A DNA stretch of 64,000 nt from positions 304 to 64,303 of the forward strand of contig DATDWZ010000008.1 of assembly GCA_036517295.1 (NCBI GenBank). The letters are read 5' to 3'. The stretch's first letter is position 1, and every line of letters begins with the position of its first letter. The notes beneath the pieces are model-generated. The model was given only the letters and a program-made list of their open reading frames with translations. It searched no databases and had not been told where the DNA came from. Shown piece by piece: positions 731 through 42,296 of the stretch. The DNA is from Minisyncoccota bacterium (lineage in GTDB: Bacteria > Patescibacteriota > Minisyncoccia > Phycocordibacterales > DATDWN01). The position numbers and the translations under genes are program-made.

Positions 731-756
731 TGAAATAGCCACAAAAAGGCAACGCG

Positions 757-1525: not shown

Positions 1526-1548
1526 CTTGCCACCGGCAGGTCCTGAAA

Positions 1549-2806: not shown

Positions 2807-2925
2807 GTCGACGGGTGGCACTGGCCGCACATCAGGCTGCTTCGCCACGGCCTGCTAGGCCATGCCGTGGTCAGCTTGCCGTCGTGATGGCCGCGTGAAG
2901 ATTGTTCAGGCGTTCAAAGCCGCAT

Positions 2926-15916: not shown

Positions 15917-17812
15917 TTATTTAAACAATTCCAATCCTTTGGTTAATTCATCCACTTCAGACTTTGGACCAAATATAAGGAGCCCAAGAAAATCAATGTC
16001 TTTTACATCCTTCGCTTTCGTCCATTCAACCACTTTGTTATCACTTGTTGTTTCTATCATCTCTTTTGTAAAGTGAGCAATTTCCAATCCCCTTTCTTGG
16101 GCCAAGTCCGATAGTCTCCAGATATCCTCCGAACTTCCGGCGGTCTTTATCATGATTGCGTGTCGGATATTCAATCTTATATTTTTATTGTCTTGAGTTT
16201 TTATGGAATCGAATTTAAAAAGATTATTTTTCGACCGTGCGCCAAAAGCCACACCGAGATGAGCGATGGTATTTGCAACCTTCCAGGGTTCCAGATTCAA
16301 CCCTTTATTTATTATGGCTGTCACGACCCAAGTCGCCTTATCTTTCTTTTTTATTTCCTCCAGAGGTCTCATCAGCGGGAAAGCTTGCAGTTCGCGAAGT
16401 GGTTTATCCGCCAGAAAAGCAAAGAGTCTCTCGCCGAAACCGAACCCACAGGTGGGAGGCATACCGTGTTCCAGCATTTCCACAAATTCATCATCCTGCA
16501 TCATGGCCTCCGTATCGCCGGCATCTATCAACCTCTGTTGAGCCTCAAATCTCTGTTTTTGATCAATCGGATCATTCAACTCGGAATAACCGTTCCCGAC
16601 TTCACTGCCGGCAATAATCGGCTGAAATCTTTGGGCGGTTTTTATATTATCCGGGTTCGCTTTTGACAGTGGTGCAACCAGAGTCGGATGGTTTATGAGA
16701 AAGGCCGGGCCGGAAATCTGCCTACGGCAATATTTCCATAAGGTATCCGTCAGCCTCTCCTTATTGTCTCCTTCATACTTTACACCGAGCTCATCCAATT
16801 TCTTTTTCATATCACCTTCGCTCGCGGTTAACAAATCAATGTTGGTCATTTCTTTCACTTTTGAAACATAGTCTATTTTTTTCCATTCATCGGCCAAATC
16901 GAAAGAGTGTCCGTGAGTGGTAAACTTTGTAGTACCAAAAACTTTTTTGGCAATCTCAATATACATTTCCCGCACCAATTCCATACCATCGTTATAATCG
17001 GCAAAGGACCAGTAAAATTCCATGTTCGTAAATTCTTGAGCGTGCTCGGGAGAAGTCCCCTCATTCCGATATGCCTTTCCTATCTCAAAAGTCTTTGGGA
17101 AGCCACCGGCCATAAGTCTCTTCTGCCACAATTCGCCTATCGATATGCGTAAATAAACATCGAGGTCATAATCGTTGTGGTGTGTTCTGAATGGAGTGGC
17201 CTCCGCGCCTCCAGTGGTGGTTTCAAGAGTCGGGGTCTCAACTTCGAGAAACCCTTTGCTCTTCATAAACTCCCGAGTTACATCCCAGAATTTGGATTTT
17301 TTTACTATCAAATCGCGTAACTCGCCGTTCATTAAAAAATCCAGGTATCGCTTTCTATACCTTTCATCAACATCCTGTAATCCGTGCCATTTTTCCGGTA
17401 ACGGCAGGATGGACTTACAGGCCATGACCCAAGAATTAACTATGATACTTTGTTCGCCTGTTTTAGAAACCGCAGGAACGCCGGTAATAGAAATAAAATC
17501 TCCAACATCGATGGTGTCCGTAAATAAAGAAAAATTATCGACCTTTATTTCATCCTTTTTTACAATAGCCTGAATCCTTTCCGTTCCATCAAAAAGCACG
17601 GCAAAAAGTATGGCCCCCTGGCCACGCAGAGCCATTACTCTTCCGGCTACAGAAACCGGTTTGCCCGATTTACTCCTTGTATCAAATTCGGATTTTAAAA
17701 TAGATATCGGAAAATCTCGTGGGACTTTTGCCGGATATGGGTTTATACCTTTACTTTTCAGTATTTCAAGCTTTTGTAATCGCGCTTGCCTTATTTCTTC
17801 TAGTGAGGCCAT
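15917..17812 (-). CDS. lysS: Lysine--tRNA ligase (class II) with ~140-aa C-terminal PTH2/DUF2000-like domain
   Basis: Class II LysRS core (anticodon-binding OB fold, then motifs through ...GMPPTCGFGFGERL). The C-terminal extension TWVVTAIINKGLNLEPWKVANTIAHLGVAFGA...LLIFGPKSEVDELTKGLELFK resembles the peptidyl-tRNA hydrolase PTH2 fold (VIVVRTDL...AQ..HA ... AIGP...VTG.LKLL). Confidence 0.85.
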   Translation of the reverse strand: MASLEEIRQARLQKLEILKSKGINPYPAKVPRDFPISILKSEFDTRSKSGKPVSVAGRVMALRGQGAILFAVLFDGTERIQAIVKKDEIKVDNFSLFTDTIDVGDFISITGVPAVSKTGEQSIIVNSWVMACKSILPLPEKWHGLQDVDERYRKRYLDFLMNGELRDLIVKKSKFWDVTREFMKSKGFLEVETPTLETTTGGAEATPFRTHHNDYDLDVYLRISIGELWQKRLMAGGFPKTFEIGKAYRNEGTSPEHAQEFTNMEFYWSFADYNDGMELVREMYIEIAKKVFGTTKFTTHGHSFDLADEWKKIDYVSKVKEMTNIDLLTASEGDMKKKLDELGVKYEGDNKERLTDTLWKYCRRQISGPAFLINHPTLVAPLSKANPDNIKTAQRFQPIIAGSEVGNGYSELNDPIDQKQRFEAQQRLIDAGDTEAMMQDDEFVEMLEHGMPPTCGFGFGERLFAFLADKPLRELQAFPLMRPLEEIKKKDKATWVVTAIINKGLNLEPWKVANTIAHLGVAFGARSKNNLFKFDSIKTQDNKNIRLNIRHAIMIKTAGSSEDIWRLSDLAQERGLEIAHFTKEMIETTSDNKVVEWTKAKDVKDIDFLGLLIFGPKSEVDELTKGLELFK

Positions 17813-17825: not shown

Positions 17826-17950
17826 AGCATAGACAATTTTCAATTTCTAATTTTAAATTTTCAAACAATTTTCAATGCTTCAATGAATTAAACGGGTTAT
17901 TTTATAAATTAATTCATTAGAAATTGTTTAGAAATTAGAAATTGAAAATT
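17826..17950. repeat. AT-rich palindromic intergenic repeat (core AATTTTCAATTTCTAATTTT; central 10-bp hairpin aatgaattaa/ttaattcatt)
   Basis: Large imperfect palindrome between cfa and lysS. Related motifs occur at 26401-26460, 27080-27140 and 29975-30012. Confidence 0.6.
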
Positions 17951-21676: not shown

Positions 21677-22471
21677 TTATTTGGTTTTTTCTATAAAGAC
21701 AGACTTCGCGGAGAAAACATTGCCCAAACTTCTTATATACACCGTTTTAAAAGAACTTTGAGAATTAGTGTCTATGTAATACACACTACCTATGATAGAC
21801 GAGGCTATTCCCGGATACATAAAAACATCACCCCATAAAATATCAGTTTCCTTCGGAACTTCCAGTTTCATATTAGCCCCTCCCGCACCAGTAATAGTAA
21901 ACGAAGCTCCGGTACGGGATAGGGTCATTTGTTCTGCCACACCGCTACTGGAAAAAAGACGAACCAGAGATGTGTGTGGGGTGATATTGGTAACAATACC
22001 TATAATAGTTACATCCGACAAATAAACTTTATTACCGAGGACAACACCGTCAGAGGAGCCCGCGTCCACAACAAATGTATCGTACGGAGATTGTGGCGGT
22101 TTGGATAATATTCGAGCCATGACCCGACTGGTTGAGATTTTTCTTCCCAATTCCTCTTTCAGTTCCAGATTTTCTTTTAACAAAGCATCATAATCTATTT
22201 CTTTCATCCGTAGGTTGGATAACTCCTCTTTTATAGCAAGATTATCCGTAATCAACCTGCTCTTGAAAACAAAAAAATCTTTTGCATATATGAACGGTTT
22301 GGCCGATGTATTACCTATAATCCAGATAGGCCTGGAAACGGTATAAAAAAAACTTCGGAGATAACCCATAAATAAAAAACCGGAAAAGCTTAGAAGCATG
22401 AACAAGACAATGGTGAAGATCATTTTCCTGTGACCGAAAGACTTTGGTTTACTTCTTAGGAGGTAATTCAT
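21677..22471 (-). CDS. mreC: Rod shape-determining protein MreC
   Basis: N-terminal TM, coiled coil (KENLELKEEL), C-terminal beta domains. Downstream of mreB. Confidence 0.75.
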   Translation of the reverse strand: MNYLLRSKPKSFGHRKMIFTIVLFMLLSFSGFLFMGYLRSFFYTVSRPIWIIGNTSAKPFIYAKDFFVFKSRLITDNLAIKEELSNLRMKEIDYDALLKENLELKEELGRKISTSRVMARILSKPPQSPYDTFVVDAGSSDGVVLGNKVYLSDVTIIGIVTNITPHTSLVRLFSSSGVAEQMTLSRTGASFTITGAGGANMKLEVPKETDILWGDVFMYPGIASSIIGSVYYIDTNSQSSFKTVYIRSLGNVFSAKSVFIEKTK

Positions 22472-23510
22472 CTTGGTTGGCGATTAAAACATCTTTGTAT
22501 AATTCTATGTCGTCCAAGATAATACCCGTGCCACGACAAACAGCAGTCAGTGGATCGTCGGCTATGTGAACGGGGATTTTTGTATATTCATGAATAATCT
22601 CAGCAAGTCCTTTTATCAAGGCCCCTCCACCAAACAGATAAACTCCCCGATGCATCACATCAGATAGAATTTCCGGCGGAGTCGTTTCCAAAACCTCCTT
22701 AACCGATTCTATGAGTGTATCTATCGACTGCGAAATGGCTTCCCGAATATCGGAGTCGGTTATGACCACTTCGCGTGGAAGACCTGATATAAGATCACGA
22801 CCTTTTATCGATGCCTCAAGCGGAACATCACTCGGTAATATCGCTCCTATGGATATTTTTATATTTTCTGCAGTTTTTTCACCGATTAAAATTTTGAACT
22901 CGCTTCGAACATAGGAAATGATGTCGTTGTTCAATTTATCTCCTGCGATACGGACATTTTTTGAACGAACCACTCCACCGAGAGAAATTACGGCGATATC
23001 GGAAGTTCCGCCACCTATATCTATGACCATATTACCAATAGGTTCGTGAATAGGAAGTCTTATGCCAATCGCGCCGGCCATTGGCTCTTCGACGATATAT
23101 ACCTCCGAAGCTCCGGCATTTTTACACGCATCACGAACCGCACGAGTTTCCACATTTGTAATTCCAGACGGAACACCGACAACAACGCGCGGACCTAAAA
23201 GTTTTTTATTATGCTTTTGGGCTTTGTTCAAGAGATAAGTAATCATTTCCTCGGTTACTTCGAAATCAGAAATAACACCGTCCACAAGAGGACGGATGGC
23301 AACGATATGCCCCGGAGTTCTGCCGAGCATCTGCTTGGCATCTTTACCAACAGCAACCACACGACCGGTCTTTTGGTTCACAGCAACAACAGACGGTTCG
23401 TTCAACACTATTCCCTTACCGCGCAAATAGACCAAAGTATTGGCGGTACCCAAATCGATACCGATATCGTTCGAGAGAAGTCTTTTAAATTGTTCGAAGT
23501 TTTTTATCAT
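22449..23510 (-). CDS. mreB: Rod shape-determining protein MreB (actin-like ATPase)
   Basis: GIDLGTANTLVY phosphate-1 motif, DIGGGTSD and LFGGGALIKG motifs. Confidence 0.9.
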   Translation of the reverse strand: MIKNFEQFKRLLSNDIGIDLGTANTLVYLRGKGIVLNEPSVVAVNQKTGRVVAVGKDAKQMLGRTPGHIVAIRPLVDGVISDFEVTEEMITYLLNKAQKHNKKLLGPRVVVGVPSGITNVETRAVRDACKNAGASEVYIVEEPMAGAIGIRLPIHEPIGNMVIDIGGGTSDIAVISLGGVVRSKNVRIAGDKLNNDIISYVRSEFKILIGEKTAENIKISIGAILPSDVPLEASIKGRDLISGLPREVVITDSDIREAISQSIDTLIESVKEVLETTPPEILSDVMHRGVYLFGGGALIKGLAEIIHEYTKIPVHIADDPLTAVCRGTGIILDDIELYKDVLIANQDELPPKK

Positions 23511-27079: not shown

Positions 27080-27140
27080 AATTTTCAATTTTTAATTTTG
27101 TAATTTTTAAATAATTTCTAATGAATTAATGTCTAAAAAA
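27080..27140. repeat. AT-rich intergenic repeat (second copy of the 39-mer)
   Basis: See 26401-26460. Confidence 0.6.
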
Positions 27141-28172: not shown

Positions 28173-29186
28173 TCAGCGCTTCGAAATTATCAATCGCTTG
28201 TATGTATCTAGATGTTCTAAAGCAATCCCTGTCCCCTTTGCCACACAATATAGAGGGTCTTTTGCCAAAACGGCTTTCACACCAGTCCGACGAAAAACAA
28301 GTTCGGGGAAATTGCGTAGTTGTGACGAACCGCCAGTCATTATGATTCCCTGATCAATAATATCTGACGAAAGTTCTGGTGGAGTTTCCTGCAAAACATC
28401 TTTTATTGCTTTTATCATTTCACGCAGGTCTTTCGATATCGCTTTGACTATCTCGTTTGTTTTTATTTCAACGCTTCGTGGAAGACCGGTCACAAAATCG
28501 CGACCTTTTATGGTCATTGAAAGTTCTTCATCGAGAGGAATGGCCGAGCCGATGTTTATTTTTATATCTTCCGCTGTCTTGTCGCCGATGCCGAGATTGA
28601 ATGTTTTCTTTATATAGTCGGTTATAGCATAATCGATTTTATTTCCTGCGCATTTAACCGATGTTGAAGAAACGATACCGCCGAGAGAAATCACCGCCAC
28701 GTCCGTCGTTCCTCCGCCGATATCAACGATCATGTGTCCCATTGCTTCGTGAATCGGAATCCCCGCGCCGATAGCGGCCAGAATCGGCTCTTTGACCACG
28801 TAGGCGTTTTTCGCGCCGGCTCGTATTGCCGCTTCTATAACCGCCCGCCGTTCGGTCGATGTCACGCCCGCAGGGACAGAAACAAGAACCTCGGGCTTTG
28901 TAAAATTCCATTTACCCAAAGCTTTATCCATGTAATATCGCAACATCGCTTCCGTAACACGATAATCAGCAATGACACCGTCTTTCATAGGACGATAAGC
29001 AATTATGTTTTCTGGAGTACGACCAATCATCTCCTTTGCTTCGATACCGATGGCCACAATACGATTGTCCTCTTCAGACACTGCCACAACGGATGGTTCA
29101 TTCAGAACTATCCCGCGACCAGGAACAAAGACCAGTATATTGGCCGTACCAAGGTCGATTCCGAGCTTTTTTGAGAAAATTCCCAT
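28173..29186 (-). CDS. MreB-like actin homolog (second paralog)
   Basis: GIDLGTANILVF, DIGGGTTD and IMTGGSSQLRN motifs. About 45% identical by eye to the mreB at 22449..23510. Confidence 0.85.
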   Translation of the reverse strand: MGIFSKKLGIDLGTANILVFVPGRGIVLNEPSVVAVSEEDNRIVAIGIEAKEMIGRTPENIIAYRPMKDGVIADYRVTEAMLRYYMDKALGKWNFTKPEVLVSVPAGVTSTERRAVIEAAIRAGAKNAYVVKEPILAAIGAGIPIHEAMGHMIVDIGGGTTDVAVISLGGIVSSTSVKCAGNKIDYAITDYIKKTFNLGIGDKTAEDIKINIGSAIPLDEELSMTIKGRDFVTGLPRSVEIKTNEIVKAISKDLREMIKAIKDVLQETPPELSSDIIDQGIIMTGGSSQLRNFPELVFRRTGVKAVLAKDPLYCVAKGTGIALEHLDTYKRLIISKR

Positions 29187-29206: not shown

Positions 29207-29971
29207 ATGCTGGATAATGCAAAAAGGGAAATCTTGAAACATAAAGAGCTTTACGCGACTATCTTGGTCGTTGTTTTAATTATTATTTCTGGTCTTGTCG
29301 GCTACAAAAAAGGCTACAGGTTCCAGAACAACTTTTTGATCGGAAAAGTTGGAACTTTATCTATAACCATACCGACAATACAGACAAATATTTTTATCGA
29401 CCAAAACCGTAAAATCACAACAATGAGCGACAACCAAACGGTGAGCATCCCACTATCCCCACGCAGTCACTCGGTCATTGTTTCTCACGACGGATACTTT
29501 CCTTGGAAGAAAGACTTTACTATGCCTAGTGGCGGAAACATCGTCCTCTCCCCTATTTTTGTAACCCAAAATGCAACGGGGCAAATTATTTTGAAAAACG
29601 ATCCAGAGTTTTGGGAAATCAGAAGCCGAATAATTCGCGACATCTTACCCACAAAAGAAAACCCCAGATTCTCTACAGATAATTTCGGAGCAATGTGGAT
29701 TGAAGACAACGCGGTAATAGTTAAGGTACAAGAAAAAATGTTCACGGTTATCCAGCCCGACACTGTAATAAAAAACCTCTACTTTTACAAAGACAGAAGC
29801 GACACCGTAGTTTTCTCAACAAATAATTCTATATATGTAATCGAGGTTAACAAAGAAGGTACCCAGAACTTCATACCCATATACAAAGGTAAAAACCCTT
29901 ACTTCATCGCCAGGGACATCGGCTTCATATATGTTCTCGATGGAGAGACTTTGATGCAGGTGATTATCTAA
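29207..29971 (+). CDS. Single-TM hypothetical protein with PEGA-like beta domain
   Basis: N-terminal TM. SHSVIVSHDGYFPWKKDF resembles a PEGA motif. Weak. Confidence 0.55.
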   Translation: MLDNAKREILKHKELYATILVVVLIIISGLVGYKKGYRFQNNFLIGKVGTLSITIPTIQTNIFIDQNRKITTMSDNQTVSIPLSPRSHSVIVSHDGYFPWKKDFTMPSGGNIVLSPIFVTQNATGQIILKNDPEFWEIRSRIIRDILPTKENPRFSTDNFGAMWIEDNAVIVKVQEKMFTVIQPDTVIKNLYFYKDRSDTVVFSTNNSIYVIEVNKEGTQNFIPIYKGKNPYFIARDIGFIYVLDGETLMQVII

Positions 29972-29974
29972 ATA

Positions 29975-30012
29975 AATTTTCAATTTCTAATTTTCAATTT
30001 TCAAAGATTTGA
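29975..30012. repeat. AT-rich intergenic repeat AATTTTCAATTTCTAATTTTCAATTTTCAAA
   Basis: Same core as 17837-17870. Confidence 0.55.
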
Positions 30013-30079
30013 CAGTGAGCGTAAAATTGACATAATAGCCTTAGATTGCGGGATAGAAACCCCATACGAGGAGAAGTCC

Positions 30080-30373
30080 ATGCTCACAGTAACACATGTG
30101 ATCTCAGTCGTTCTGATCCTTACCGGAGTGTTCACCTGGTTCAGAATCTCCAGACGGAACATCCCGCCGGCCACACCTTATCCCGTCGGTTCGGAAATCC
30201 TCCTCGGGAAGGAACTCGTAACGATCGTGGGGCACCGGCACTCCACCAGAAACGGAGACTTCCTGTACGATGTCGAGGGCGAAACGGGTGATCAGGCGGT
30301 GGCACGACATTCAGAAATGTCGTCTATGAAAAAAGTGCGGTCGTCTGGGCAAGAGAAGCAATGGCTACACTAG
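30080..30373 (+). CDS. Small GC-rich protein with N-terminal TM helix (97 aa)
   Basis: AGGAG 6 nt upstream of ATG 30080. The downstream hairpin caggaaaacc-tgccggc-ggttttcctg is a 10-bp perfect stem. About 58% GC. Confidence 0.45.
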   Translation: MLTVTHVISVVLILTGVFTWFRISRRNIPPATPYPVGSEILLGKELVTIVGHRHSTRNGDFLYDVEGETGDQAVARHSEMSSMKKVRSSGQEKQWLH

Positions 30374-30478
30374 ACTGGAAACGGTCCGCGTGTCTGCTAC
30401 GAGCGTGAGAAGCATCCCGGCACAATGGCCGCCGAGCAGGAAAACCTGCCGGCGGTTTTCCTGTTATAATGGAAAATC

Positions 30479-32386
30479 ATGCGAATTCTTACAGTCATAC
30501 CCATCAGCAAGGGCATATCCAAAGACACCCTGACCTACTTCACAAGCAAGGATGTGAGTACTGGCTCCATAGTCTCAATCCCCCTCCGAAACAAAACTAT
30601 TTACGGACTGGTAACCGCAAGCAAGGTGGCTCAGGAAATAAAATCCGAACTAAAATCGCTTTCGTACAGTATAAAAAAGATAGAGAAAATAGAGGCCAGA
30701 AACTTTTTGTCAGATGGTTTTATCGAGAGCGCACAGAAAATTGCAGATTATAACGCCGGAAGTGTCGGTGCCGTTTTGTCCGCTCTTATCCCGCGGACCA
30801 TACTGGAAGAAAGCGAGAAGTTGTCCTACACTCCACTGCAAACTCCAAAAAATACATTTCATGAAACCGTACTCCTACAATCGGATGATGAGGAAAGATA
30901 CGCAACATACAGAAGTCTCATACGTGAAGAATTTGCCAAGAATCGAAGCGTTTTTTTCTGTCTACCAACGACCGAGGATTTATTGAACGCCAAATTAACC
31001 CTAGAAAAAGGCATAGAAAAATATACATACATGTTACATTCCGGTTTGTCGAAAAAAGAACTCGTTGGTCTTTGGCAGAACATTATAGACGAACCACACC
31101 CACTGCTTATTATCGCCACAGGTTCTTTCTTGTCTCTACCCCGTCATGATCTCGGCACTATCATATTGGAAAAAGAAAGCTCGCGCGCATACAAAATGCA
31201 GGTGAGGCCGTTCATAGATATCCGTAGTGCCGTAGAAATAATAACCAAACAATTAAGTGTTCGCCTGGTGCTGGGTGATTTATTGCTTCGTACCGAAACG
31301 CTATGGGAAGAAAAGAATGGTCGATACGCGGAACTGTCCCCCCTCAAGTTCCGCTCACTTACAACGGCTGGATGCGAACTTGTCAGCATGCGCGTACCGC
31401 AGGATATGAAGAAAAAAGAGTTCACGATATTTAGTGATAAATTGAAAGATATGATTCGTGAAGCAAAAGAAAACAACGAACACACATTTTTATTTTGTGG
31501 ACGAAAAGGCCTGTACCCCGTAACTGTTTGTAGTGATTGTGGAACCGTTGTGGTGTGTAAAAATTGCAACGCCCCGGTGGTTTTGTACGGCCCTGCTTCG
31601 CGCAAGGCTACGCAGGGTAAGAGAAGCTTGTTCGTATGTAACCATTGTGGAGAGAGGCGTGATGCGGAAGAGTTGTGCGCGCATTGTGGAGGTTGGAGAC
31701 TGAATCCTATGGGACTGGGTATTGATAGGGTAGTCGAAGAAATTAAATCCATGATTCCAGAAGCTAATATAGTACTCATGGACAAAGACCATGTAACTAC
31801 CCATAAACAAGCGGTCAAGGCACGCGACCTTTTTTATTCCACCCCGGGCAGTGTTATGGTCGGCACAGAAATGGCCGCCACCTATCTTAATGAAAAAATA
31901 GAAAATGTGGCTGTCATTTCAATAGATTCATATTTTTCCATACCGGATTTTCAGGTGAATGAAAAAATATTCCATATTCTTTTGGGGCTGCGAGCTTTGG
32001 CAGAGAAAAATCTCCTGTTTCAGACGAGACAAGAGAATACCAAAATATTCGACTATGCTTTGCGCGGAAATCTTCTGGATTTTTATCGTGATGAAATAGA
32101 AGAGCGGGAGTCAATCGGCTATCCACCTTTTGTAACATATATAAAACTCAGTCTTGAAGGAGAAAAAAATGACATAAAAAAGGAAATGGCTAATATTGCT
32201 GACCAGATGAAACCGTACGAGGTCAATATCTTTGATGCATTCAATCCGGGCGGAAAATTAAAGTACACCATACACGGGCTTTTATCTCTCCCACACGGCA
32301 AATGGATGGATAAAATACTTTTGGATAAACTAAGAACGCTTCCACCGCATGTAGCGGTCAGAATAGACCCCGTCACGCTTTTGTGA
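30479..32386 (+). CDS. priA: Primosomal protein N' (PriA) homolog with degenerate helicase motifs I/II/III
   Basis: N-terminal 3'-DNA-binding domain. Cys-rich region CSDCGTVVVCKNCNAPVV...CNHCGERRDAEELCAHCG. C-terminal domain present. At the Walker A position it reads QSDDEERYATY instead of GxGKT. It reads LEKES instead of DEEH and VLGDLL instead of SAT. Confidence 0.8.
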   Translation: MRILTVIPISKGISKDTLTYFTSKDVSTGSIVSIPLRNKTIYGLVTASKVAQEIKSELKSLSYSIKKIEKIEARNFLSDGFIESAQKIADYNAGSVGAVLSALIPRTILEESEKLSYTPLQTPKNTFHETVLLQSDDEERYATYRSLIREEFAKNRSVFFCLPTTEDLLNAKLTLEKGIEKYTYMLHSGLSKKELVGLWQNIIDEPHPLLIIATGSFLSLPRHDLGTIILEKESSRAYKMQVRPFIDIRSAVEIITKQLSVRLVLGDLLLRTETLWEEKNGRYAELSPLKFRSLTTAGCELVSMRVPQDMKKKEFTIFSDKLKDMIREAKENNEHTFLFCGRKGLYPVTVCSDCGTVVVCKNCNAPVVLYGPASRKATQGKRSLFVCNHCGERRDAEELCAHCGGWRLNPMGLGIDRVVEEIKSMIPEANIVLMDKDHVTTHKQAVKARDLFYSTPGSVMVGTEMAATYLNEKIENVAVISIDSYFSIPDFQVNEKIFHILLGLRALAEKNLLFQTRQENTKIFDYALRGNLLDFYRDEIEERESIGYPPFVTYIKLSLEGEKNDIKKEMANIADQMKPYEVNIFDAFNPGGKLKYTIHGLLSLPHGKWMDKILLDKLRTLPPHVAVRIDPVTLL

Positions 32387-32539: not shown

Positions 32540-33082
32540 ATGAAAAAAATACTACAAAAAGACTCGCCCATATTACGACAGAAATCTCTGGAGGTTCCGG
32601 TGAAAGATATTAGTTCACCTAAAATCAAAAAGGTTATAAGGGAAATGAAGGAAGCGTTGAACTCCCAGGATGACGGCGTGGCTATCGCTGCTCCGCAGAT
32701 TGGGTATTCCCTTCGGATATTTATCGTCTCAAAGAAGGTCTTTGAGATAAATAAAGCAGTCAAGGAAAATCCTAGGGGGATTAGTTCAACTGGTCTTGTT
32801 TTTATAAATCCGGTCATAAAAAAAGTATCGAAGGAAAAGAAAGGATTGGAAGAAGGGTGTCTGTCGGTTAGATTTTTATACGGTAAGGTTGAGAGAAGTA
32901 ACAAAGCCACCATATCGGCATACAACGAGGCCGGTAAAAAATTCGAAAGGGGCGGAACGGGACTCTTGGCCCAAATATTCCAACACGAAGTGGATCACCT
33001 GAACGGAATCCTGTTTATCGACAAAGCAAAGAGTCTGGAAGAACTGCCACCTGGGCATGGTATAGATGAACCAAAAAAATAA
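32540..33082 (+). CDS. def: Peptide deformylase
   Basis: EGCLSV and QHEVDHLNG metal-binding motifs. Confidence 0.9.
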   Translation: MKKILQKDSPILRQKSLEVPVKDISSPKIKKVIREMKEALNSQDDGVAIAAPQIGYSLRIFIVSKKVFEINKAVKENPRGISSTGLVFINPVIKKVSKEKKGLEEGCLSVRFLYGKVERSNKATISAYNEAGKKFERGGTGLLAQIFQHEVDHLNGILFIDKAKSLEELPPGHGIDEPKK

Positions 33083-33946
33083 ATGTCGTCAAAAAATAAT
33101 TCTAGTTGGGCATTTTTCGGCACTTCACTATTTTCCGTAACTATATTGGATGAGTTAAGAAGCGCGGGCTTTGTCCCGAATCTTTTAGTCACGGTCCCGG
33201 ACAAGCCGAAAGGCAGAAAGCTAATACTGACCCCTTCGGATACAAAAATCTGGGCGGAGAAAAACGGTATTCCCGTCTTCCAACCGGAAAAATGGGACGA
33301 AGATGCGGTTTCAAAACTTTCAGATTACAGTTTTCGATTTTTTGTCGTAGCCTCGTATGGAAAAATTATTCCTCGACATATTTTGGATATTCCTAAGCAC
33401 GGCGCTTTGAATGTCCACCCCTCACTCCTACCAACACTACGAGGTCCATCCCCTATAGAGAGCGCCATATTGAAAGAAAGTGGGACCGGTGTGACAATCA
33501 TCAAGCTGGATAAAGAGATGGACCATGGGCCGATAATCGCCCAGGAAAAAGTACTGGTTGATGAGTGGCCTCCATACACCAAAGATCTCGAAAACAAACT
33601 GGGGATGGTCGGCGGACAAATACTGGTAAATGTAATCCCTGATTGGCTTCTCGGAAAAATAAAAGGGATCGAGCAAAATCACAGTCTTGCCACTTTTTGT
33701 AAAAAAATAGAAAAGGAAGATGGAAAAATAAATCTAGCCGACAGCCCTGAAGTAAATCTGAGAAAAATAAGAGCCTACCATATATGGCCGGGAGCTTTTT
33801 ATCTCCATCAATCTGGGAAAAGAGAAATCCGTGTAATCATAAAAAGGGCACATATAGAAAACGGTGCATTGATTTTGGATAGAGTATTGCCAGAGGGTAA
33901 GAAAGAAATGGGTTACAAAGATTTCCTTAGAGGATTAAGAAATTAG
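33083..33946 (+). CDS. fmt: Methionyl-tRNA formyltransferase
   Basis: Formyltransferase N-domain, HPSLLP motif, C-terminal domain. Adjacent to def. Confidence 0.9.
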   Translation: MSSKNNSSWAFFGTSLFSVTILDELRSAGFVPNLLVTVPDKPKGRKLILTPSDTKIWAEKNGIPVFQPEKWDEDAVSKLSDYSFRFFVVASYGKIIPRHILDIPKHGALNVHPSLLPTLRGPSPIESAILKESGTGVTIIKLDKEMDHGPIIAQEKVLVDEWPPYTKDLENKLGMVGGQILVNVIPDWLLGKIKGIEQNHSLATFCKKIEKEDGKINLADSPEVNLRKIRAYHIWPGAFYLHQSGKREIRVIIKRAHIENGALILDRVLPEGKKEMGYKDFLRGLRN

Positions 33947-34597: not shown

Positions 34598-34915
34598 TCC
34601 GGTGTAGCTCAGTGGTAGAGCAATCGCCTGTACCGAAAGGTTGTGCAGCTTCCTAAAGTAATTTAGGATGAAAAATGAGGTGAATTCGGGGAACCCCACA
34701 GTTTAATAGCTGAGGGCAATCCCGAGCCAAGTCCCGAGAGAAATCGAGGGAAAGGTGTAGAGACTATCTCGTAAGAGAGTAGCCGTCACGCAAGTGAGTA
34801 GGCGAAGCGCCCCACATCCCACTCAGAAATGAAGGATGATGATATAGTCCAGACCAAAGGCAACTTTGGATAAAATGTAAGCGATTGGTCGTAGGTTCGA
34901 TCCCTACCGCCGGAG
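34598..34915 (+). tRNA. tRNA-Asn(GUU) interrupted by a group I intron in the anticodon loop (exons 34598-34631 and 34878-34915; CCA not encoded)
   Basis: Acceptor tccggtg/cgccgga (U1-A72, G73 as in Asn). D-arm gctc-agtggta-gagc. Anticodon stem atcgc/gcgat with loop CUGU|UAA after splicing. T-arm gtagg-ttcgatc-cctac. 5' exon ends in U; intron ends in G. Confidence 0.7.
34632..34877 (+). ncRNA. Group I intron (IC3-like, tRNA anticodon-loop type), ~246 nt
   Basis: Conserved core strings AAUCCCGAGCCAAGUCCCGAGAG (cf. AAUCCUGAGCCAAGCCGAAG), AAGGUGUAGAGACUA (P7; cf. GGUGUAGAGACUA) and UCGGGGAACCCC. Ends with omega-G. Confidence 0.7.
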
Positions 34916-36562
34916 CAATGGTCGTGAAAGAGGTATAATTTGCCTCTGTCGTGGCTTTACCAGGGACTTTTTTGAGGTTCGAAAATGATTTCGAGGCTCC
35001 GGAAGTTCCACAAATGGTTGAGAACTCGTTTTTAACAAGGAACCGCCAGCCGTAAGGGTTTTGGTGGTTTTTTGTGCTTGTTCGAAAGTTTTCTCTTGAT
35101 CTAGTCGTTGCTGTACTCTTTCCGCAAGTTTCTGAACTGGAGTTTTCATTGTCGGAGTTACTTCTTTATCTGTAAGTATTAAGTTCGAAAAGATATGACT
35201 CAAAAGTAATCTTCTGTCTTCGGGAGACCTTTTCTCGTATATCTCTCTTGCTCTCCTAGCAAGGTCAATTATATTCAACCAGATTTCAAAATACTTTGCT
35301 TCTTCAGTCTTAATCCTACCAAGTTGTTCTATCACAGCATTTTGCTCTTCTATTATTTCCTTATTTTTTATCTCCCAACGCTCTCTTGTAATTCTCTCAT
35401 CAAGACGGTCATCATATACGTTATCTAAACGTCTCTGTAGTGAGCTGTAGCGGTCGTTAAGCCCCTTGATAGCACTTTCCTTGTACTCTATCTCTTGGGC
35501 GTGGTTTTCCTTAATTTTAACCTTAATTTGCTCTGCCTCTTCTGGTGTTATGGTTTCAAAGAACTTAAAGACTCCAAAGAGTTTGTCTTCGAGTTCCTTT
35601 TCCGGTGCATACTTTTTCTGAGAGCAGTTTCGGTAATGATTGCAGTGATAATAGACTATTCCTTTCTGTATTTCTGCCGTAATAGTCCCACTACATTCTC
35701 CACAGATAAACATTTTTCTAAATTGAAACTCGTGGCGGTTAAAGTGAGGAGTCTTTTTACCCATTCTAATATCTCTAACCTTTTCAAATAACTCTTTGGT
35801 GATAAGGGGTTCGTGAGACCCATTACTAAAAACCTCATCATTCCATTCCATCGCTCCATAGTAAAAAGGATTATTAAGAATACTCTCAATAACACTTTTT
35901 ACCATCTTCTTACCAGATCGAGTCCGAAATCCCTCTTTGTAAAACATCTCAATCACGGCTTTCATAGAATAGTTACCAGAACCATAAAGTTCAAACATCC
36001 TTTTTACGAATGGAGCGATTTCTTGATCTATTATGTGTGTTTTATGTCCCTTCTCACCAATGGTTTTATATCCGAGTGGAGGTTTTGTTGGTAACCACCC
36101 TTGAGCAAGTTTTTCTTTCTGACCCTTTTTTACCTCTTCAGATAGATTTGAAATAAACTTCTTAGCTAGAACTATTTCAATATCCCAGCGAAACTTTTCG
36201 TCAGATTTAGCGTTCTTATGGATAATCAGATTTTGCTTAACAAAATGTATTTGCCTAGAAACATCTCCCTCAACCCAATCGTTAATCGCTAGTGCTTCCT
36301 TGAAGTTGCGAGTAAGTCTATCTACTTTCTCACAGAGTAATATATTTACTTTATTTTTTTCCAAAAACTCTAACATTTCTGCAAAAACCACTCGTTGTTT
36401 TGCACCACTTGCTGACTCTGCAATCGAAAAGACTTTTATCATCTGAAAATCTTTTCGCTGAGCATATTCCTCCATAAGTTTAACCTGTGATGGCAAAGAA
36501 TAACCTGTTTCTTCTTGTTCTTTTGATGAAACTCTACAATAACTAACTGCTTTTATTTTCAT
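34904..36562 (-). CDS. Large serine recombinase (resolvase catalytic domain + recombinase domain + zinc ribbon + coiled coil)
   Basis: YCRVSSKEQ catalytic Ser motif. Recombinase domain. CGECSG...YYHC zinc ribbon. Long coiled coil. The 3' end overlaps the tRNA-Asn 3' end. Confidence 0.85.
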   Translation of the reverse strand: MKIKAVSYCRVSSKEQEETGYSLPSQVKLMEEYAQRKDFQMIKVFSIAESASGAKQRVVFAEMLEFLEKNKVNILLCEKVDRLTRNFKEALAINDWVEGDVSRQIHFVKQNLIIHKNAKSDEKFRWDIEIVLAKKFISNLSEEVKKGQKEKLAQGWLPTKPPLGYKTIGEKGHKTHIIDQEIAPFVKRMFELYGSGNYSMKAVIEMFYKEGFRTRSGKKMVKSVIESILNNPFYYGAMEWNDEVFSNGSHEPLITKELFEKVRDIRMGKKTPHFNRHEFQFRKMFICGECSGTITAEIQKGIVYYHCNHYRNCSQKKYAPEKELEDKLFGVFKFFETITPEEAEQIKVKIKENHAQEIEYKESAIKGLNDRYSSLQRRLDNVYDDRLDERITRERWEIKNKEIIEEQNAVIEQLGRIKTEEAKYFEIWLNIIDLARRAREIYEKRSPEDRRLLLSHIFSNLILTDKEVTPTMKTPVQKLAERVQQRLDQEKTFEQAQKTTKTLTAGGSLLKTSSQPFVELPEPRNHFRTSKKSLVKPRQRQIIPLSRPLLRR

Positions 36563-37287: not shown

Positions 37288-39699
37288 CTAGAACAAGTCC
37301 TCAAACGGTCTCCATTCCTTACTGTCATTTACTGACTGTCTTTCCCTAAAGGAATACTTCGGACTATCGTTGTAATACCAAAGTCCTGCTTCTTGTACCG
37401 CAATACCACCTACAAACTTTTTACCAAATTGCTTGAGCTTAGCTTGCAATGATTTTGCCTTATCAGCGGTATCTGTACTTGTTGCGGTATCTCCTTTCTT
37501 CGTATCAAAAATACCTATACGACCATCAGAGAAGCGAATAATCCAGTCAGGATAAAACAGGTTTTCTTCTTTTGTTGATGAGTTTGTATATTTAATGCCT
37601 AGATAGTTTTTTCCTTGATCGCCGTTTTTGAACCACCAATCAATCTTCCCTTTTTTCTTTTCCAAGTACTCGACAAAAGCAATTTCATTTTTGCGTCCAT
37701 TATAATCTTCTAATAAGTAGAACTTGTCTAATACACATAACTTTTGAGGGACAACCTTATAATCTTCAGGATACCGATATTCTTCTTGTATAGTAAAAGT
37801 ATATGCTTGCTGTTCTTCTATCTTCTTTTTCTTGTCAGTGAGTAAACTATCTGAAATTGGTTTGTAAGCTCTAAGTGCCTTTGTTATTGCCGGACGAAAC
37901 TTACTTTCAGTACCTTTACGAATATCTTTAATAAATATCTTGTACCAAAAAATATGGTCATCAAGTAAAACTGTCTTAAACCAAACACGAAGTGCTTGTT
38001 TTAACACTGACCAAGAACGAGCTATGTTAGAGTATCTAGCTTTGTCGTCTTCTTGTTCTTTCAAGATTTGGTAACAAAGATAGTTGAATGTTTTTTCAAC
38101 ATCACTCACTGACATTTCAAGAGAAACATCACTACCTTTCTTTTTGAAATCAAAAGCAAGGTTATCGTAGTCCTCAAAACGAGCATTGGCTATAACTTCA
38201 TTTACTAAAGTATTACTAAGATCCAGCCCTGCCTTTTTTAATTTTATCTCTGATTTACCTAAAATATCTTTCTCACTAATACCAAAATGCTTGTTTAATT
38301 CTATTCTAAAAACTTTTTGGAACTCTGAAGATACACGAATATCTCCGTAATCTAAGCGAGAAATATAATCAGAAGGCAACTCTATATTACTTATTCCTTT
38401 TTTTATATGTGCAGTTTCTGTAAGAGCTTTATTCGCAGGGTTTTGATCTGGTATTACTACTTCCTTACGCTTATAGTTTGTATATAGATAACCCAATCGG
38501 AGGTTAGGATTATTTTTGTAATCTTCTTTTGCTTGAGGTTCAGGCATTCGCAAAATACGCCCAACAGTTTGAGTATAAAAAGTATTTGATTGTATCTCTC
38601 TAAACATCACAAGTACCGATGCACGAGGACAGTCCCAACCATTACCAGCAGTTTGTTTGAAGATCAGAAAATCGTGTTCATCGTCATTTTCTTCTAGCCC
38701 CTTCGGTTTATCTTGTCCCTTAGACCATTTTGCAATTTTATGTTCAGGTACTTTCATTCTAACAAGATAATCTGTAACAATTTTTTCCTTTGTCTGTTCG
38801 CCTTTTTCTATTAACTTACTGTCGTCATTCGGTATTTGTATTAACATTAAAGGATTTATTTCTTTCCCGAGTGCCTTAAGTTCAGCTTTTAATTCTTCTC
38901 TTTTATTTATTCCATTTTCAAGAAGAACTCTATCAAGGTCTTTACCGGACATACCCTTAAAATCTTCATCTGTTTGAGTAACAATAGCTTCTTTTATTAA
39001 ACCTTGATCAACCACTTCTTTTCTTGGGACTTCATAATAACTACCAAGACGGCGAGCATCCAGTTCGTCATCTCGGTTTGGTGTAGCTGTAATGTGAAGA
39101 ATTACCTTAGGATCAATCATCTCGATAATATCCTTTGCGAGCCTCGTGTCTTTGTTTTTATGGGCTTCATCAATAACTAAAATAATCTGCCTGCCATCAG
39201 CGTGTGTTTGCTCAATTACATCCTCAAAGTATTTACCCGTTTCTTTTATCCACTCTTCATCTTCAGGACGGCGAAGTAATCTTGTTTCTGCACTTTTAGC
39301 AGTAACTTTTTGCCAATTCAAAAACAAAATATCATTTTGATATAGTTTGCCTTGATTTATATCTGCAACAGTCAAAGCTCTGTTTTCAAGCATATTTTCA
39401 AAATACTCAAGAAACTTACCTTTACTTTGCATAGCCAAATCATCACTGAAAGTAATCCAAATAAATGCCTTGTCTTCTTTCCATTGTGGTAAATGATTAA
39501 GGCCACGAATAAAGAGTGAGGTCATAAAGGTTTTACCGCTACCAGTTGGCGATTTGAAAACAATAGGTAATTGTCTGCCTTGTTGTTTCCATATCGCTAC
39601 AAACATATCTGTAAGATTTTCTACAGCAGTTTTTTGGAATTGTAATGGATTAAATGTTTTCATATTAAATAATATTGTATATTTGCTTGTATACCTCAA
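37288..39699 (-). CDS. res: Type III restriction enzyme Res subunit (SF2 helicase + C-terminal PD-(D/E)xK endonuclease)
   Basis: KSPTGSGKTF (motif I), LVIDEAHKN (DEAH), ITATPN (motif III). C-terminal PDWIIRF...IGIFDTKKG nuclease motif. Confidence 0.85.
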   Translation of the reverse strand: MRYTSKYTILFNMKTFNPLQFQKTAVENLTDMFVAIWKQQGRQLPIVFKSPTGSGKTFMTSLFIRGLNHLPQWKEDKAFIWITFSDDLAMQSKGKFLEYFENMLENRALTVADINQGKLYQNDILFLNWQKVTAKSAETRLLRRPEDEEWIKETGKYFEDVIEQTHADGRQIILVIDEAHKNKDTRLAKDIIEMIDPKVILHITATPNRDDELDARRLGSYYEVPRKEVVDQGLIKEAIVTQTDEDFKGMSGKDLDRVLLENGINKREELKAELKALGKEINPLMLIQIPNDDSKLIEKGEQTKEKIVTDYLVRMKVPEHKIAKWSKGQDKPKGLEENDDEHDFLIFKQTAGNGWDCPRASVLVMFREIQSNTFYTQTVGRILRMPEPQAKEDYKNNPNLRLGYLYTNYKRKEVVIPDQNPANKALTETAHIKKGISNIELPSDYISRLDYGDIRVSSEFQKVFRIELNKHFGISEKDILGKSEIKLKKAGLDLSNTLVNEVIANARFEDYDNLAFDFKKKGSDVSLEMSVSDVEKTFNYLCYQILKEQEDDKARYSNIARSWSVLKQALRVWFKTVLLDDHIFWYKIFIKDIRKGTESKFRPAITKALRAYKPISDSLLTDKKKKIEEQQAYTFTIQEEYRYPEDYKVVPQKLCVLDKFYLLEDYNGRKNEIAFVEYLEKKKGKIDWWFKNGDQGKNYLGIKYTNSSTKEENLFYPDWIIRFSDGRIGIFDTKKGDTATSTDTADKAKSLQAKLKQFGKKFVGGIAVQEAGLWYYNDSPKYSFRERQSVNDSKEWRPFEDLF

Positions 39700-41350
39700 G
39701 GATTGGTTGCGGTATTGTTTTGAGATTTATTTTTTTGTTATCTTCAAAATCAGCAATTTCAACTCTTTCTTCCCAACTAAACATATAAACTGTTACTGGT
39801 TTTTTAAGTGATAGGACTTCTTTTATAAACTCATCAAGTTTGTTTTGTTCTTCTCTGAAATATACTGCTGTCATTCTATCTTTGTTTTCAAACACTTGCC
39901 AATAATCATTTTTCTTTACTTGCTCTAGCGTATTTTCTGCGATTGCGAGCATTTCACCTGCGTGATGAGCTAGTAGTATTTTGTCTTTATCATCTGCATC
40001 AAGAATGTTGTGCTTACCAACAAAAGCAGTTTTGTAAAACTTAACTGATTGAAACAACCCACCTTTATCATTATATCCAGTAATGGCTGTTTTAATTCTT
40101 GGTAAACAAATATCGCTCATTATGTTATTTTCGTTGTCGGTAACTAAGATAAATTGCCTTGAACCTTTTGTGTCTTCATCTTTATTTAATTGCATAACAG
40201 CGTGTCCTGTTGTTCCTGAACCAGCAAAGAAATCTAAAACAATTATATTATTATCAAAATGGTTTAGTAATTCTCTTATTAGTTTAGTAGGTTTTACTGT
40301 GTCAAAACCGTGTTCTTTACCAAGAATTAAAGATAACTCTTTTTTACCGTCTTCAGCTGTATCAACTTGTTCTTTAAGCAGAAGCGACCAAAAAGGTCTT
40401 TCAATGGATTGATTTTCGTCTTCAGGATAGATAATTTTTTTTACTTTCCCTTCCACTATAATTATTTTATCTTCTTCAATTAAGCGATTAACTTCCTGAA
40501 GTCCAATTTTCCATCTTTTACCCGTTTGTGGAATAACACCTAAGATTGGAAACTTCATAGTATCTCTTTTCTTTCTTCCTATATCTGAGTCCTCAATATC
40601 AACAAGACGAGCTAGTCCTTTTTTAGTTTGAAAATTATATTTTCTTTGACCTTGTTCTTTTAGGACAAAACCTAGATATTTTTCTTTTGGTATCGCATTA
40701 CTATAACAAAGAATGTATTCTATGTTTTGCTGTATTTGATATTTTGCCTTACCAGAATTAACTGGTTTGGTTTTATTCTGCCAATTAAGGATACCCAGCA
40801 ATGAAGTTTCGCCAAAAATACTATCAGTAAGAAGTTTTAATTGTGCAAACTCGTTATCGTCAATACTTATGAAAATAACACCGTCTTTCGTTAGAAGGTC
40901 TTTGGATAACTCTAACCTCTTTCGCATAAAAGAAAGCCAGTAGCTATGACGAAAAGGGTGGTCTTTTGGCACATCTGTTCCATCAGGATATTTATCTAAA
41001 ATCCTTTTATCTTTATAACGAAAACCGTCTTCTCCTGTGTTGTACGGCGGGTCAATATAAATAACATCAATCTTGCTCTTATGTGTGTAATTTAAGCAAG
41101 TAAGTGCGTGGTAATTATCACCCTCAATAAGTAGGTGGGTGGGTTCGGTATCTTTACTTTTAATTCCTTTTGTGGGTACATCTTCAAGAATTGGTAGTTT
41201 ATTTTCTACATCATCTTCAAAACCTTCAGGCACATCAAGCCACACTAAACCATAGTGTTGTGTTTTTACAGCTTTTTTCCATTTCTCAATTTCTTTTTCA
41301 AGCTTGAGAATGTGATTTTCTTTTTGTTGTAGTAATTCTTTTTCAGTCAT
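39665..41350 (-). CDS. mod: Type III restriction-modification Mod subunit (N6-adenine DNA methyltransferase, beta class)
   Basis: YIDPPYNTG (motif IV) lies upstream of FFAGSGTTGHAV (motif I). Overlaps the res start. Confidence 0.85.
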   Translation of the reverse strand: MTEKELLQQKENHILKLEKEIEKWKKAVKTQHYGLVWLDVPEGFEDDVENKLPILEDVPTKGIKSKDTEPTHLLIEGDNYHALTCLNYTHKSKIDVIYIDPPYNTGEDGFRYKDKRILDKYPDGTDVPKDHPFRHSYWLSFMRKRLELSKDLLTKDGVIFISIDDNEFAQLKLLTDSIFGETSLLGILNWQNKTKPVNSGKAKYQIQQNIEYILCYSNAIPKEKYLGFVLKEQGQRKYNFQTKKGLARLVDIEDSDIGRKKRDTMKFPILGVIPQTGKRWKIGLQEVNRLIEEDKIIIVEGKVKKIIYPEDENQSIERPFWSLLLKEQVDTAEDGKKELSLILGKEHGFDTVKPTKLIRELLNHFDNNIIVLDFFAGSGTTGHAVMQLNKDEDTKGSRQFILVTDNENNIMSDICLPRIKTAITGYNDKGGLFQSVKFYKTAFVGKHNILDADDKDKILLAHHAGEMLAIAENTLEQVKKNDYWQVFENKDRMTAVYFREEQNKLDEFIKEVLSLKKPVTVYMFSWEERVEIADFEDNKKINLKTIPQPILEVYKQIYNII

Positions 41351-42005: not shown

Positions 42006-42296
42006 AGTTATAATTATACTTTACTATTCTTTACAAGCCAAACTCACGAAGTGGACAACCTTATGAACACAACATAATAAAAATAGTATTGGCAGATCAA
42101 TAACCTATGATATAATTCACCCACAACTGAATAAGCAGACCTAACCCTATAGTTTTTATTATAGGTATGGTTGCAGGTCGTATAAGGCACAAAGAACCCA
42201 TCGCAGGGTCGCCTTATACGCCTTATCGGGAAACCGGTATGAGGGACTTCGGTCTCTACCTGTGGTGGGCTTTTTGTATATAAAAATAGTAAAATT

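Follow-up and report, generated by a model that had tools for sequence, protein, structure and literature searches.

A PriA homologue lacking ATPase motifs, conserved across the Parcubacteria/Paceibacterota: a candidate ATP-independent scaffold for replication restart

Introduction

Can a PriA protein that has lost the motifs of its helicase motor still serve as the restart factor of its lineage? The helicase activity of PriA was described in a 2017 review as conserved 'except in Deinococcus' (PMC5778457), and nothing relevant to the PriA of the candidate phyla radiation (CPR), Patescibacteria or Parcubacteria was found in the literature. The question is raised by a protein of 635 amino acids (aa) encoded in a 64,000-nucleotide stretch of contig DATDWZ010000008.1 from a Minisyncoccota bacterium (assembly GCA_036517295.1), hereafter called the window. 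A preliminary description of this DNA had recognised the gene as a priA homologue with degenerate ATPase motifs and proposed that its product is a helicase-dead scaffold.

This study supports that proposal as the best reading of the sequence and of published analogy, and revealed that the same state occurs lineage-wide, with a published precedent in Deinococcus-Thermus. In our judgement the resident priA orthologue of this Zambryskibacteria-like member of the Parcubacteria/Paceibacterota has probably turned, along with its lineage, into a pseudohelicase, which would act as an ATP-independent, fork-recognising scaffold for replication restart.

Results and Discussion

Identity of the protein as a PriA homologue

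The open reading frame (ORF) runs from ATG to TGA without a frameshift or internal stop in the ORF listing, and its GC content, overall and at third codon positions, agrees with that of the adjoining genes. Identity to canonical PriA is 16–18%. A phmmer search of all PDB sequences matched PriA only, namely the Klebsiella protein (4nl4/6dgd, E=1.3e-27) and that of E. coli (6dcr/8fak, ~6e-24), and phmmer scores to the Bacteroides, Bacillus and Acaryochloris PriAs were 120–142 bits. When a profile of 54 family members was compared by hhalign with one built on canonical PriAs from four sources (E. coli, Bacillus, Bacteroides and Acaryochloris), the two aligned over 586 columns with a probability of 100% (E=8.7e-48).

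An AlphaFold2 (AF2) model was built from the family alignment (predicted local distance difference test, pLDDT, 82.5; predicted template-modelling score, pTM, 0.75). Searched against the PDB with Foldseek, it retrieved PriA at ranks 1–9, led by E. coli PriA on a fork (8fak_H, E=1e-37, TM 0.78) and, at rank 2, by an engineered E. coli PriA lacking the winged-helix (WH) domain (6dcr, TM 0.72). The first family other than PriA was Mfd (E=2e-8), and other superfamily 2 helicases scored E≥2e-8. As modelled, the protein has the overall PriA fold, with two RecA-like lobes and with the cysteine-rich region (CRR) as well as the C-terminal domain (CTD) packed with the 3'-DNA-binding domain (3'BD). By sequence, profile, fold and genomic position, it is a bona fide PriA homologue.

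Retained are the 3'BD, the folds of the two RecA-like lobes, the eight cysteines of the predicted zinc sites and, by alignment, a CTD, in agreement with the domain content named in the preliminary description (3'BD, Cys4-Cys4 region and CTD). The 3'BD is the only Pfam model above threshold (Table 1). In its 3'-end pocket, for which the residue list was taken from PMC5778457, Y18 of E. coli is represented by an invariant Y20, K61 by K/R66 and D17 by T/S19. All eight CRR cysteines align with E. coli C436–C479, and across 81 sequences they vary little or not at all; Pfam Zn_ribbon_PriA gave no match at threshold in the 635-aa protein. The CTD was unmatched by PF18074 at threshold, while hhalign and the fold align it to the canonical CTD, and its signature ERxxxxYPPF is conserved, with R543, P549 and P550 invariant. 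Positions that usually touch nucleic acid are kept at P163 (motif Ia), T214 and G462–T463 (motif V).

A patch on the CRR is conserved in a family-specific manner. It comprises D353 and W406 (D438 and T482, respectively, in E. coli), both invariant in the family and variable in canonical PriAs, together with R/K407, and it coincides with the positions at which PriB docks on E. coli PriA (PMC10175261). The residues assigned to the SSB-tail pocket (W82, Y86, K370, R697 and Q701) did not match the E. coli identities in the alignment, and no claim of SSB binding is made.

Loss of the ATPase and helicase motifs

Three independent alignments (phmmer against Klebsiella 4nl4, MAFFT with E. coli PriA, and hhalign between profiles) agreed on where the helicase motifs should lie, and by these alignments all motifs needed for ATP binding and hydrolysis (I, Ia, II, III, V and VI) are replaced or deleted. 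In motif I, E. coli AGVTGSGKTEVY is represented by LQSDDEERYATY (aa 133–144), so that G224, G229, K230 and T231 correspond to Q134, E139, R140 and Y141. Across the family, the K230 position is R in 79 of 81 sequences, that of G229 is E or D, and that of G224 is Q. Motif Ia has changed from VPEIGLT to LPTTEDL. Motif II reads LEKES (aa 230–234) for IDEEH, with D320, E321, E322 and H323 replaced by E231, K232, E233 and S234; across the family these positions hold E/D, K/R, an invariant E and S, respectively. In motif III, GSAT is replaced by GDLL (aa 266–269). Motif V has gone from GTQMLAKGHHF to GTEM-AATYLN, where G462, T463 and E464 are conserved and the remainder is substituted. The arginine finger of motif VI, GRAGR, falls inside a 5-residue deletion, E. 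coli G583–G586 standing opposite a gap in 81/81 sequences.

The readings of the preliminary description, QSDDEERYATY at the Walker A position and LEKES in place of DEEH, were upheld by all three alignments to curated PriAs. Its statement that SAT had become GDL was right as to the loss of motif III and off by one residue in register, SAT corresponding to DLL. Losses of motifs Ia, V and VI, and of the WH domain, are additional to those that it listed.

Intact motifs displaced by an indel were not found. Regular-expression scans revealed no GK[ST] anywhere in the 635-aa protein and no homologous P-loop, DExH, SAT or GRxGR elsewhere in it or in 427 relatives; a chance [AG]xxxxGK[ST] occurred in only 4–5 of >350 relatives, always at non-homologous sites. 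Pfam DEAD, ResIII and Helicase_C gave no match in the 635-aa protein, whereas the E. coli and Bacillus PriA controls matched all three, together with Zn_ribbon_PriA and PriA_C. An AddA-like helicase and BipA encoded in the same window retain intact P-loops, and the motif loss is thus specific to PriA.

Since every motif for ATP binding and hydrolysis is gone, a helicase-dead PriA scaffold is the best-supported reading, and from the sequence and from precedent we infer that ATPase activity is absent. The protein might instead have kept NTPase or helicase activity by way of non-canonical residues, such as R140 for the Walker lysine. Such an activity would fit the conservation of R140, E/D231 and E233 at the K230, D320 and E322 positions, and for E. 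coli PriA a further nucleotide site, weaker than the first, has been suggested (PMC5778457). It is nevertheless very improbable, given that Q, D, E and E stand where the P-loop had glycines, that K or R takes the place of the catalytic glutamate E321, that SAT is lost and that a deletion has removed the arginine finger; moreover, K230R alone kills the E. coli ATPase (PMC5778457), and the Deinococcus protein with the same K-to-R change is inactive (PMC4504706).

Loss of the winged-helix domain

The circularly permuted WH domain (E. coli ~109–181) is absent from the MAFFT and hhalign alignments, which place a linker of about 16–30 aa there instead. Almost all of the 149 representatives at 50% identity described below have a short linker (19–33 aa in most), and the linker is the least conserved segment of the family. 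The WH model PF21213 gave no match in the 635-aa protein and 105.6 bits in the E. coli control; the Bacillus control was unmatched too, although Bacillus PriA has a long insert at the WH position.

Lineage-wide conservation and selection

Among 5.8 billion proteins searched, 1,136 matched at E≤1e-5. The best 120 of these are full length, share 60–77% identity with the query, carry no helicase Pfam domain and derive from metagenome-assembled genomes (MAGs) of Zambryskibacteria, Paceibacterota, Parcubacteria and Minisyncoccia. A single scan of the GTDB species genomes gave 80 loci (36–77% identity), every one of which is in a single reading frame without frameshifts, lacks GxGKT, SAT and the arginine finger, and retains the eight cysteines.

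When 1.84 billion representatives at 50% identity were searched exhaustively, 11,802 matches were obtained, of which the best 150 were aligned (36–68% identity). The Walker A, SAT and arginine-finger motifs were missing from 149/149 representatives, all of them intact, and only one (P0176) retains DEEH. With a profile built from the 32 members that diverge most, at least 120 further matches were recovered, all of the same degenerate type, and no transitional form stood out among the matches listed. Some canonical PriAs are probably among the 2,192 clusters at E<1e-30, which cannot be taken as the family size, because canonical PriAs, with E-values rescaled to the size of the library searched, would score about E 1e-20 to 1e-36. 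In a tally of 427 unique full-length members, among them those of the 80 species genomes and of the 149 clusters at 50% identity, GRxGR was found in none and SAT in one; a P-loop occurred in four, incidentally and at non-homologous sites, and the four CxxC pairs in 417.

In the sublineage of P0176 (locus L067; cluster members P0270–P0273), DEEH is intact, whereas the arginine finger, SAT and Walker A are missing. This sublineage may record a stage in the stepwise loss of the motifs.

Synonymous divergence (dS) is saturated between the window priA and every relative, with nonsynonymous divergence (dN) of 0.17–0.30, and pairs with unsaturated dS gave dN/dS (omega) values of 0.045–0.067. Constraint on the dead RecA1-like lobe equals or exceeds that on the other domains. 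Across 150 clusters, conservation reaches 90% or more at Q134, R140 and E233; within the closer set, the same residues are also kept at E139, R236 and D267. The motif loss is a selected, lineage-wide state of the Parcubacteria/Paceibacterota and not the oddity of one genome.

A pseudogene, decaying relic or assembly artefact, a concern already raised in the preliminary description, would account for the loss of every catalytic motif and for a score under the family cutoff. It has next to no probability and is rejected: relatives carry the same substitutions as a conserved state under selection (427 unique full-length sequences, dN/dS about 0.05 with dS saturated), the ORF is free of frameshifts here and in 80/80 loci from independent assemblies, the replacement residues are themselves conserved, and the predicted fold is confident.

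Many TPA_asm MAG records with a Parcubacteria-type priA locus (L006, L011, L013, L014 and others) are titled 'uncultured Candidatus Saccharibacteria', and other odd titles are 'Nitrospira sp.' (L010) and 'Victivallales' (L049). These are probably mislabels or bin contamination rather than signs of the gene in those lineages.

Genomic position of the gene

Upstream of priA lie a divergent mreB (28173–29186, −) and orf254 (29207–29971, +), which was considered as a candidate primosome partner and encodes a small protein that looks membrane-anchored and has no Pfam match. Downstream come def and fmt (Table 1) and then hpf in convergent orientation. Across the 80 loci, the arrangement frr-holB-mreB(−)/orf254-priA-def-fmt(+)/hpf(−) is conserved; def is present in 68 of them, fmt in 67, and mreB in 62, although many of the loci are cut short. 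In Bacillus velezensis, a canonical priA occupies the same slot (coaBC-priA-def-fmt-rsmB). The window priA is the orthologue in the ancestral priA-def-fmt slot, which argues against a stray paralogue.

This position bears on the possibility that the protein is a degenerate paralogue, an accessory or regulatory subunit acting beside a canonical, active priA elsewhere in the genome. In favour of that possibility, the search for a second copy covered the 64-kb window only. We consider it distinctly unlikely, as canonical priA in Bacillus sits in the same slot, none of the 240 listed matches of the two protein searches carries DEAD, ResIII or Helicase_C, all the named sources among these 240 are Patescibacteria-type or unplaced MAGs, and the sources annotate the protein without ATPase motifs itself as 'primosomal protein N''. 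CPR genomes are also small and seldom keep paralogues.

Between orf254 and priA lies a 507-nt insertion (29972–30478), where most relatives have a spacing of 10–50 nt. It is relatively GC-rich, without a DNA match in the related loci and without an RNA family in Rfam. The insertion holds a strong promoter-like site (TTGACA-16-CATAAT, 30009–30036), a 97-aa ORF (30080–30373) that has a hydrophobic N-terminus and GAGGAG as its ribosome-binding site, and a GC-rich hairpin with a T-run immediately before a TTATAAT box and the priA start.

Comparison with known PriA systems

Deinococcus-Thermus PriAs have poor motifs I and II, with a K-to-R change at the Walker lysine (Lopper, Boone & Morrow, 2015, PMC4504706). 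The D. radiodurans protein has no ATPase or helicase activity, and it binds its own DnaB as well as single-stranded DNA (ssDNA) and forks, with Kd values of about 215 nM for ssDNA and about 109 nM for forks (PMC4504706). The present family resembles it in the degenerate motifs I and II and in the arginine at the Walker lysine position (R140); ATPase and helicase activities are presumed absent here too, and a DNA-binding and DnaB-recruiting role is predicted. PriB and DnaT, which D. radiodurans lacks, are presumably also missing from the Paceibacterota clade. The differences are that the lineage is unrelated, that the P-loop glycines are gone, that motifs III, V and VI are lost, and that no WH domain is present. 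A natural PriA pseudohelicase has already been published, and the CPR family is a more extreme, lineage-wide form of it and no new category.

The E. coli variants K230R (priA300), K230A and K230D are ATPase-dead and still assemble primosomes, supporting the PriA-PriB but not the PriA-PriC pathway (PMC5778457), and K230A is in routine use for DnaB-loading assays (PMC10175261). The same position bears the same K-to-R change in the present family. The E. coli variants, however, are engineered single substitutions in a canonical six-domain PriA that needs PriB, DnaT and DnaC, whereas the loss seen here is natural, affects multiple motifs and is fixed in a clade from which PriB and DnaT are presumably absent. 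Canonical PriA (E. coli/Klebsiella; PDB 4NL4, 6DGD, 8FAK; TIGR00595, PRK05580) shares the 3'BD, the two lobes, the eight-cysteine CRR and, by alignment, the CTD, but the family lacks the ATPase motifs and WH domain, and its Pfam match is limited to the 3'BD. The WH-deleted E. coli PriA (PDB 6DCR) has the same domain composition, but it is an engineered deletion with an active helicase core.

Actinobacterial PriAs were also found to lack the motifs and the WH domain in 3/3 cases checked, from three orders (Table 1). In these proteins WDDGD replaces DEEH and only the 3'BD Pfam model is matched; they belong to a separate NCBIfam series, PRK14873 ('primosome assembly protein PriA'). The PriA of mycobacteria reportedly carries a UniProt/HAMAP caution that it probably lacks helicase activity. 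Motif II reads WDDGD in the actinobacterial proteins and E(K/R)ES here, and the K230 position is W there and R here. The 635-aa protein scored 36 bits against Tsukamurella PriA by phmmer, compared with 120–142 bits against canonical PriAs, while Tsukamurella PriA scored about 65–104 bits to canonical PriAs and 13–67 bits to CPR members. With a best PRK14873-series score of 76.6 bits (NF011453, cutoff 812), the 635-aa protein does not belong to the actinobacterial family. Because the scores and the replacement sequences differ, the CPR and actinobacterial degenerations are probably independent, although fast evolution of dead enzymes could distort such scores.

Proposed role in replication restart

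In E. coli, the 3'BD and CTD contact the leading arm and its 3' end, and the first helicase lobe (HD1) and the WH domain contact the parental duplex; the 3'BD, HD1, the second lobe (HD2), CRR and CTD together enclose 8–9 nt of lagging-template ssDNA in a pore (PMC10175261). The pore forms when the CRR pivots, which exposes the surface for partner docking (PMC10175261). According to a 2026 study, a lagging arm in duplex form leaves the CRR unmoved and does not permit PriB binding, unwinding being needed only to create ssDNA (PMC13594977), and a PriA without a motor should therefore act on lagging templates that are already single-stranded.

By analogy, the 635-aa protein would recognise abandoned forks and D-loops by shape, with the 3'BD pocket taking the nascent leading strand's 3' end and the lobes, CRR and CTD holding the lagging-template ssDNA. 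Conserved charged residues of the former ATP cleft suggest that a fixed geometry between the lobes is stabilised. DnaB would be recruited without unwinding by PriA itself, either directly, as in Deinococcus, or through an adaptor docked on the conserved CRR patch. A restart role of this kind would be limited to forks and D-loops with a single-stranded lagging template, or else depend on another helicase to clear the arm; recombination gives rise to suitable single-stranded substrates, and the window encodes an AddA-type helicase-nuclease.

Several points weigh against a restart scaffold. The best NCBIfam matches are PriA equivalogs, yet the protein falls under their cutoffs (TIGR00595, 197.4 vs 230.35 bits; NF004066, 223.5 vs 813 bits). 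The conserved charged cleft residues suggest a function beyond passive scaffolding, and fork recognition may differ because the WH domain, which contacts the parental duplex in E. coli, is absent. Searches of the window by tblastn, with E. coli PriA and with the query, revealed no second priA, a result that applies to the window only, and no DnaB, DciA or SSB partner was identified in the window. Finally, the Deinococcus activities were measured, whereas for the Paceibacterota family ATPase loss, DNA binding and DnaB recruitment are all inferred from sequence and precedent.

Some of these points would also suit a sole PriA-like protein that has been repurposed, its rebuilt charged cleft and CRR surface serving a function other than restart, such as a DnaB-loading adaptor at the origin in the absence of DnaC/DnaI, or a fork-protection or regulatory DNA-binding factor. 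The former ATP-site residues Q134, E139, R140, E233, R236 and D267 are among the best conserved of the family, and the invariant D353 and W406 of the CRR patch, the loss of the WH domain and the score under the equivalog cutoff point the same way. Repurposing is still unlikely, considering that the 3'-end pocket residues which define fork and D-loop recognition, the full PriA architecture and the ancestral locus are all retained, that the two ATPase-dead PriAs studied keep primosome or DnaB-related functions (PMC4504706; PMC5778457), and that the neighbourhood gives no pointer to another pathway.

A bolder version of the restart scaffold can be put forward tentatively, as a rather improbable extension. 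PriA may have shed its motor on three or more independent occasions (Deinococcota, Actinomycetota and Paceibacteria/CPR), the CPR cleft being rebuilt as a conserved acidic/basic cluster (Q134, E139, R140, K/R232, E233, R236 and D267) that would act as a built-in nucleotide surrogate and fix the two lobes and the CRR permanently in an 'armed' state. The CRR patch (D353, W406 and R/K407) would then recruit SSB, DnaB or an adaptor, giving these ultra-small bacteria a minimal restart primosome free of both ATP and the WH domain.

The wider meaning lies in the extent of the loss. Hundreds of Parcubacteria/Paceibacterota species carry a recognisable PriA without ATPase motifs and WH domain under strong purifying selection, and taken together the degenerate PriAs of CPR and Actinomycetota point to structure-specific recognition of forks and recruitment of the helicase, rather than unwinding, as the ancestral function for which PriA is indispensable. 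The 'Deinococcus exception' is broadened to CPR and Actinomycetota, which should be a moderate surprise to replication-restart specialists. This naturally minimised PriA (about 635 aa, five domains) offers a model for the smallest restart machinery and for the CRR switch without a motor. For annotation, it is relevant that family members are labelled 'hypothetical protein' or 'superfamily II helicase' and fail curated PriA cutoffs.

Table 1. Positions of the priA homologue, its domains and former motifs, neighbouring and other features of the window, and the actinobacterial PriAs compared (L numbers denote the loci in which the latter lie).
Feature	Position	Strand	Evidence or remarks
priA homologue, PriA without ATPase motifs ('pseudohelicase')	30479..32386	+	Intact ORF; PDB, profile and fold matches
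3'-DNA-binding domain (aa 1–110)	30479..30808	+	Pfam PF17764, 33.2 bits vs cutoff 22.7, aa 15–105
Short linker replacing winged-helix domain (aa 111–126)	30809..30856	+	E. coli residues ~106–221 opposite gap
RecA1-like lobe, catalytically degenerate by sequence (aa 127–300)	30857..31378	+	Alpha/beta fold, pLDDT 80–94; aligns to PriA HD1
Former Walker A/motif I, QSDDEERYATY (aa 134–144)	30878..30910	+	Aligns to E. coli G224–Y234 (GVTGSGKTEVY)
Former motif Ia, CLPTTEDL (aa 161–168)	30959..30982	+	Aligns to E. coli MVPEIGLT; P163 conserved
Former motif II (DExH), LEKESSRAYKM (aa 230–240)	31166..31198	+	Alignments to PriA
Former motif III (SAT), VLGDLLLRTE (aa 264–273)	31268..31297	+	Aligns to E. 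coli ILGSATPALE
RecA2-like lobe with CRR inserted (aa 301–520)	31379..32038	+	Aligned to PriA HD2; fold match
Cysteine-rich region, two predicted Cys4 zinc sites (aa 347–410)	31517..31708	+	C351, C354, C360, C363, C387, C390, C400, C403
Former motif V, VGTEMAATYLN (aa 461–471)	31859..31891	+	Aligns to IGTQMLAKGHHF
Former motif VI (arginine finger), LLGLRALAEKNL (aa 501–512), 5-residue deletion	31979..32014	+	Alignment gap
C-terminal domain (aa 521–635)	32039..32383	+	hhalign to canonical PriA CTD; fold match
def and fmt, downstream neighbours marking ancestral priA locus	def 32540–33082; fmt 33083–33946	+	Pfam Pep_deformylase, Formyl_trans_N, Formyl_trans_C
tRNA gene split by group I intron	34599–34915	+	Rfam RF00028, 75.6 bits, 34630–34870; missed by ARAGORN
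Large serine recombinase	34904–36562	−	Overlaps 3' end of intron-containing tRNA gene
AddA-type protein, 1012 aa	60855–63893	−	UvrD helicase N and C domains, PD-(D/E)XK nuclease, Walker A AGPGTGKT intact
Tsukamurella PriA	L082:1940–3931		Without P-loop, DExH, SAT, motifs V and VI, WH
Nonomuraea PriA	L086:~502–2730		Without P-loop, DExH, SAT, motifs V and VI, WH
Microbacterium PriA	L087:1989–3911		Without P-loop, DExH, SAT, motifs V and VI, WH

Other features of the window

By its predicted domains, the AddA-type protein would mean that a recombinational end-processing helicase activity has been kept in the genome while the PriA motor was lost.

Splicing of the tRNA gene in silico by the group I rule (5' exon ending at U 34631, intron ending at G 34877) yields tRNA-Asn(GUU), and other choices yield Thr or Tyr. 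The serine recombinase that overlaps this gene is followed by a low-GC stretch (0.34 vs ~0.42) reaching to ~46000, in which a type III restriction-modification pair (res 37288–39699, mod 39665–41350) and a LOOT RNA (42138–42257) are located; in a few related loci, too, a serine recombinase lies downstream of hpf. The segment from 34904 to ~46000 looks like an island integrated at the tRNA gene. At the other end of the window, positions 1–4100 have a GC content of 0.57–0.58, compared with ~0.42 elsewhere, and encode a helix-turn-helix protein, an AAA_21/AbiEii-like ATPase and an ORF without a Pfam match; this segment may be foreign DNA or a mis-join.

An AT-rich element of ~31 nt (TTTCAATTTCTAATTTTCAATTTTCAAAG-like) recurs at the intergenic positions 29975–30005, 17835–17865 and 27080–27111, and weakly in two related loci (L009 and L029), possibly as a promoter, a terminator or a regulatory element that these regions share. 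Two full-length MreB paralogues, both strong matches to PF06723, lie within 6 kb of each other (22449–23510, −; 28173–29186, −), one adjoining mreC and the other divergent from the orf254-priA operon.

The remainder of the window encodes the housekeeping functions of a small genome, including the dcw/mur genes, penicillin-binding proteins, mreBC, aminoacyl-tRNA synthetases, greA, frr and holB. One of the synthetases, of class II (15917–17812, −), combines tRNA-synt_2 and an OB anticodon-binding domain with a C-terminal DUF2000, which is an unusual fusion.

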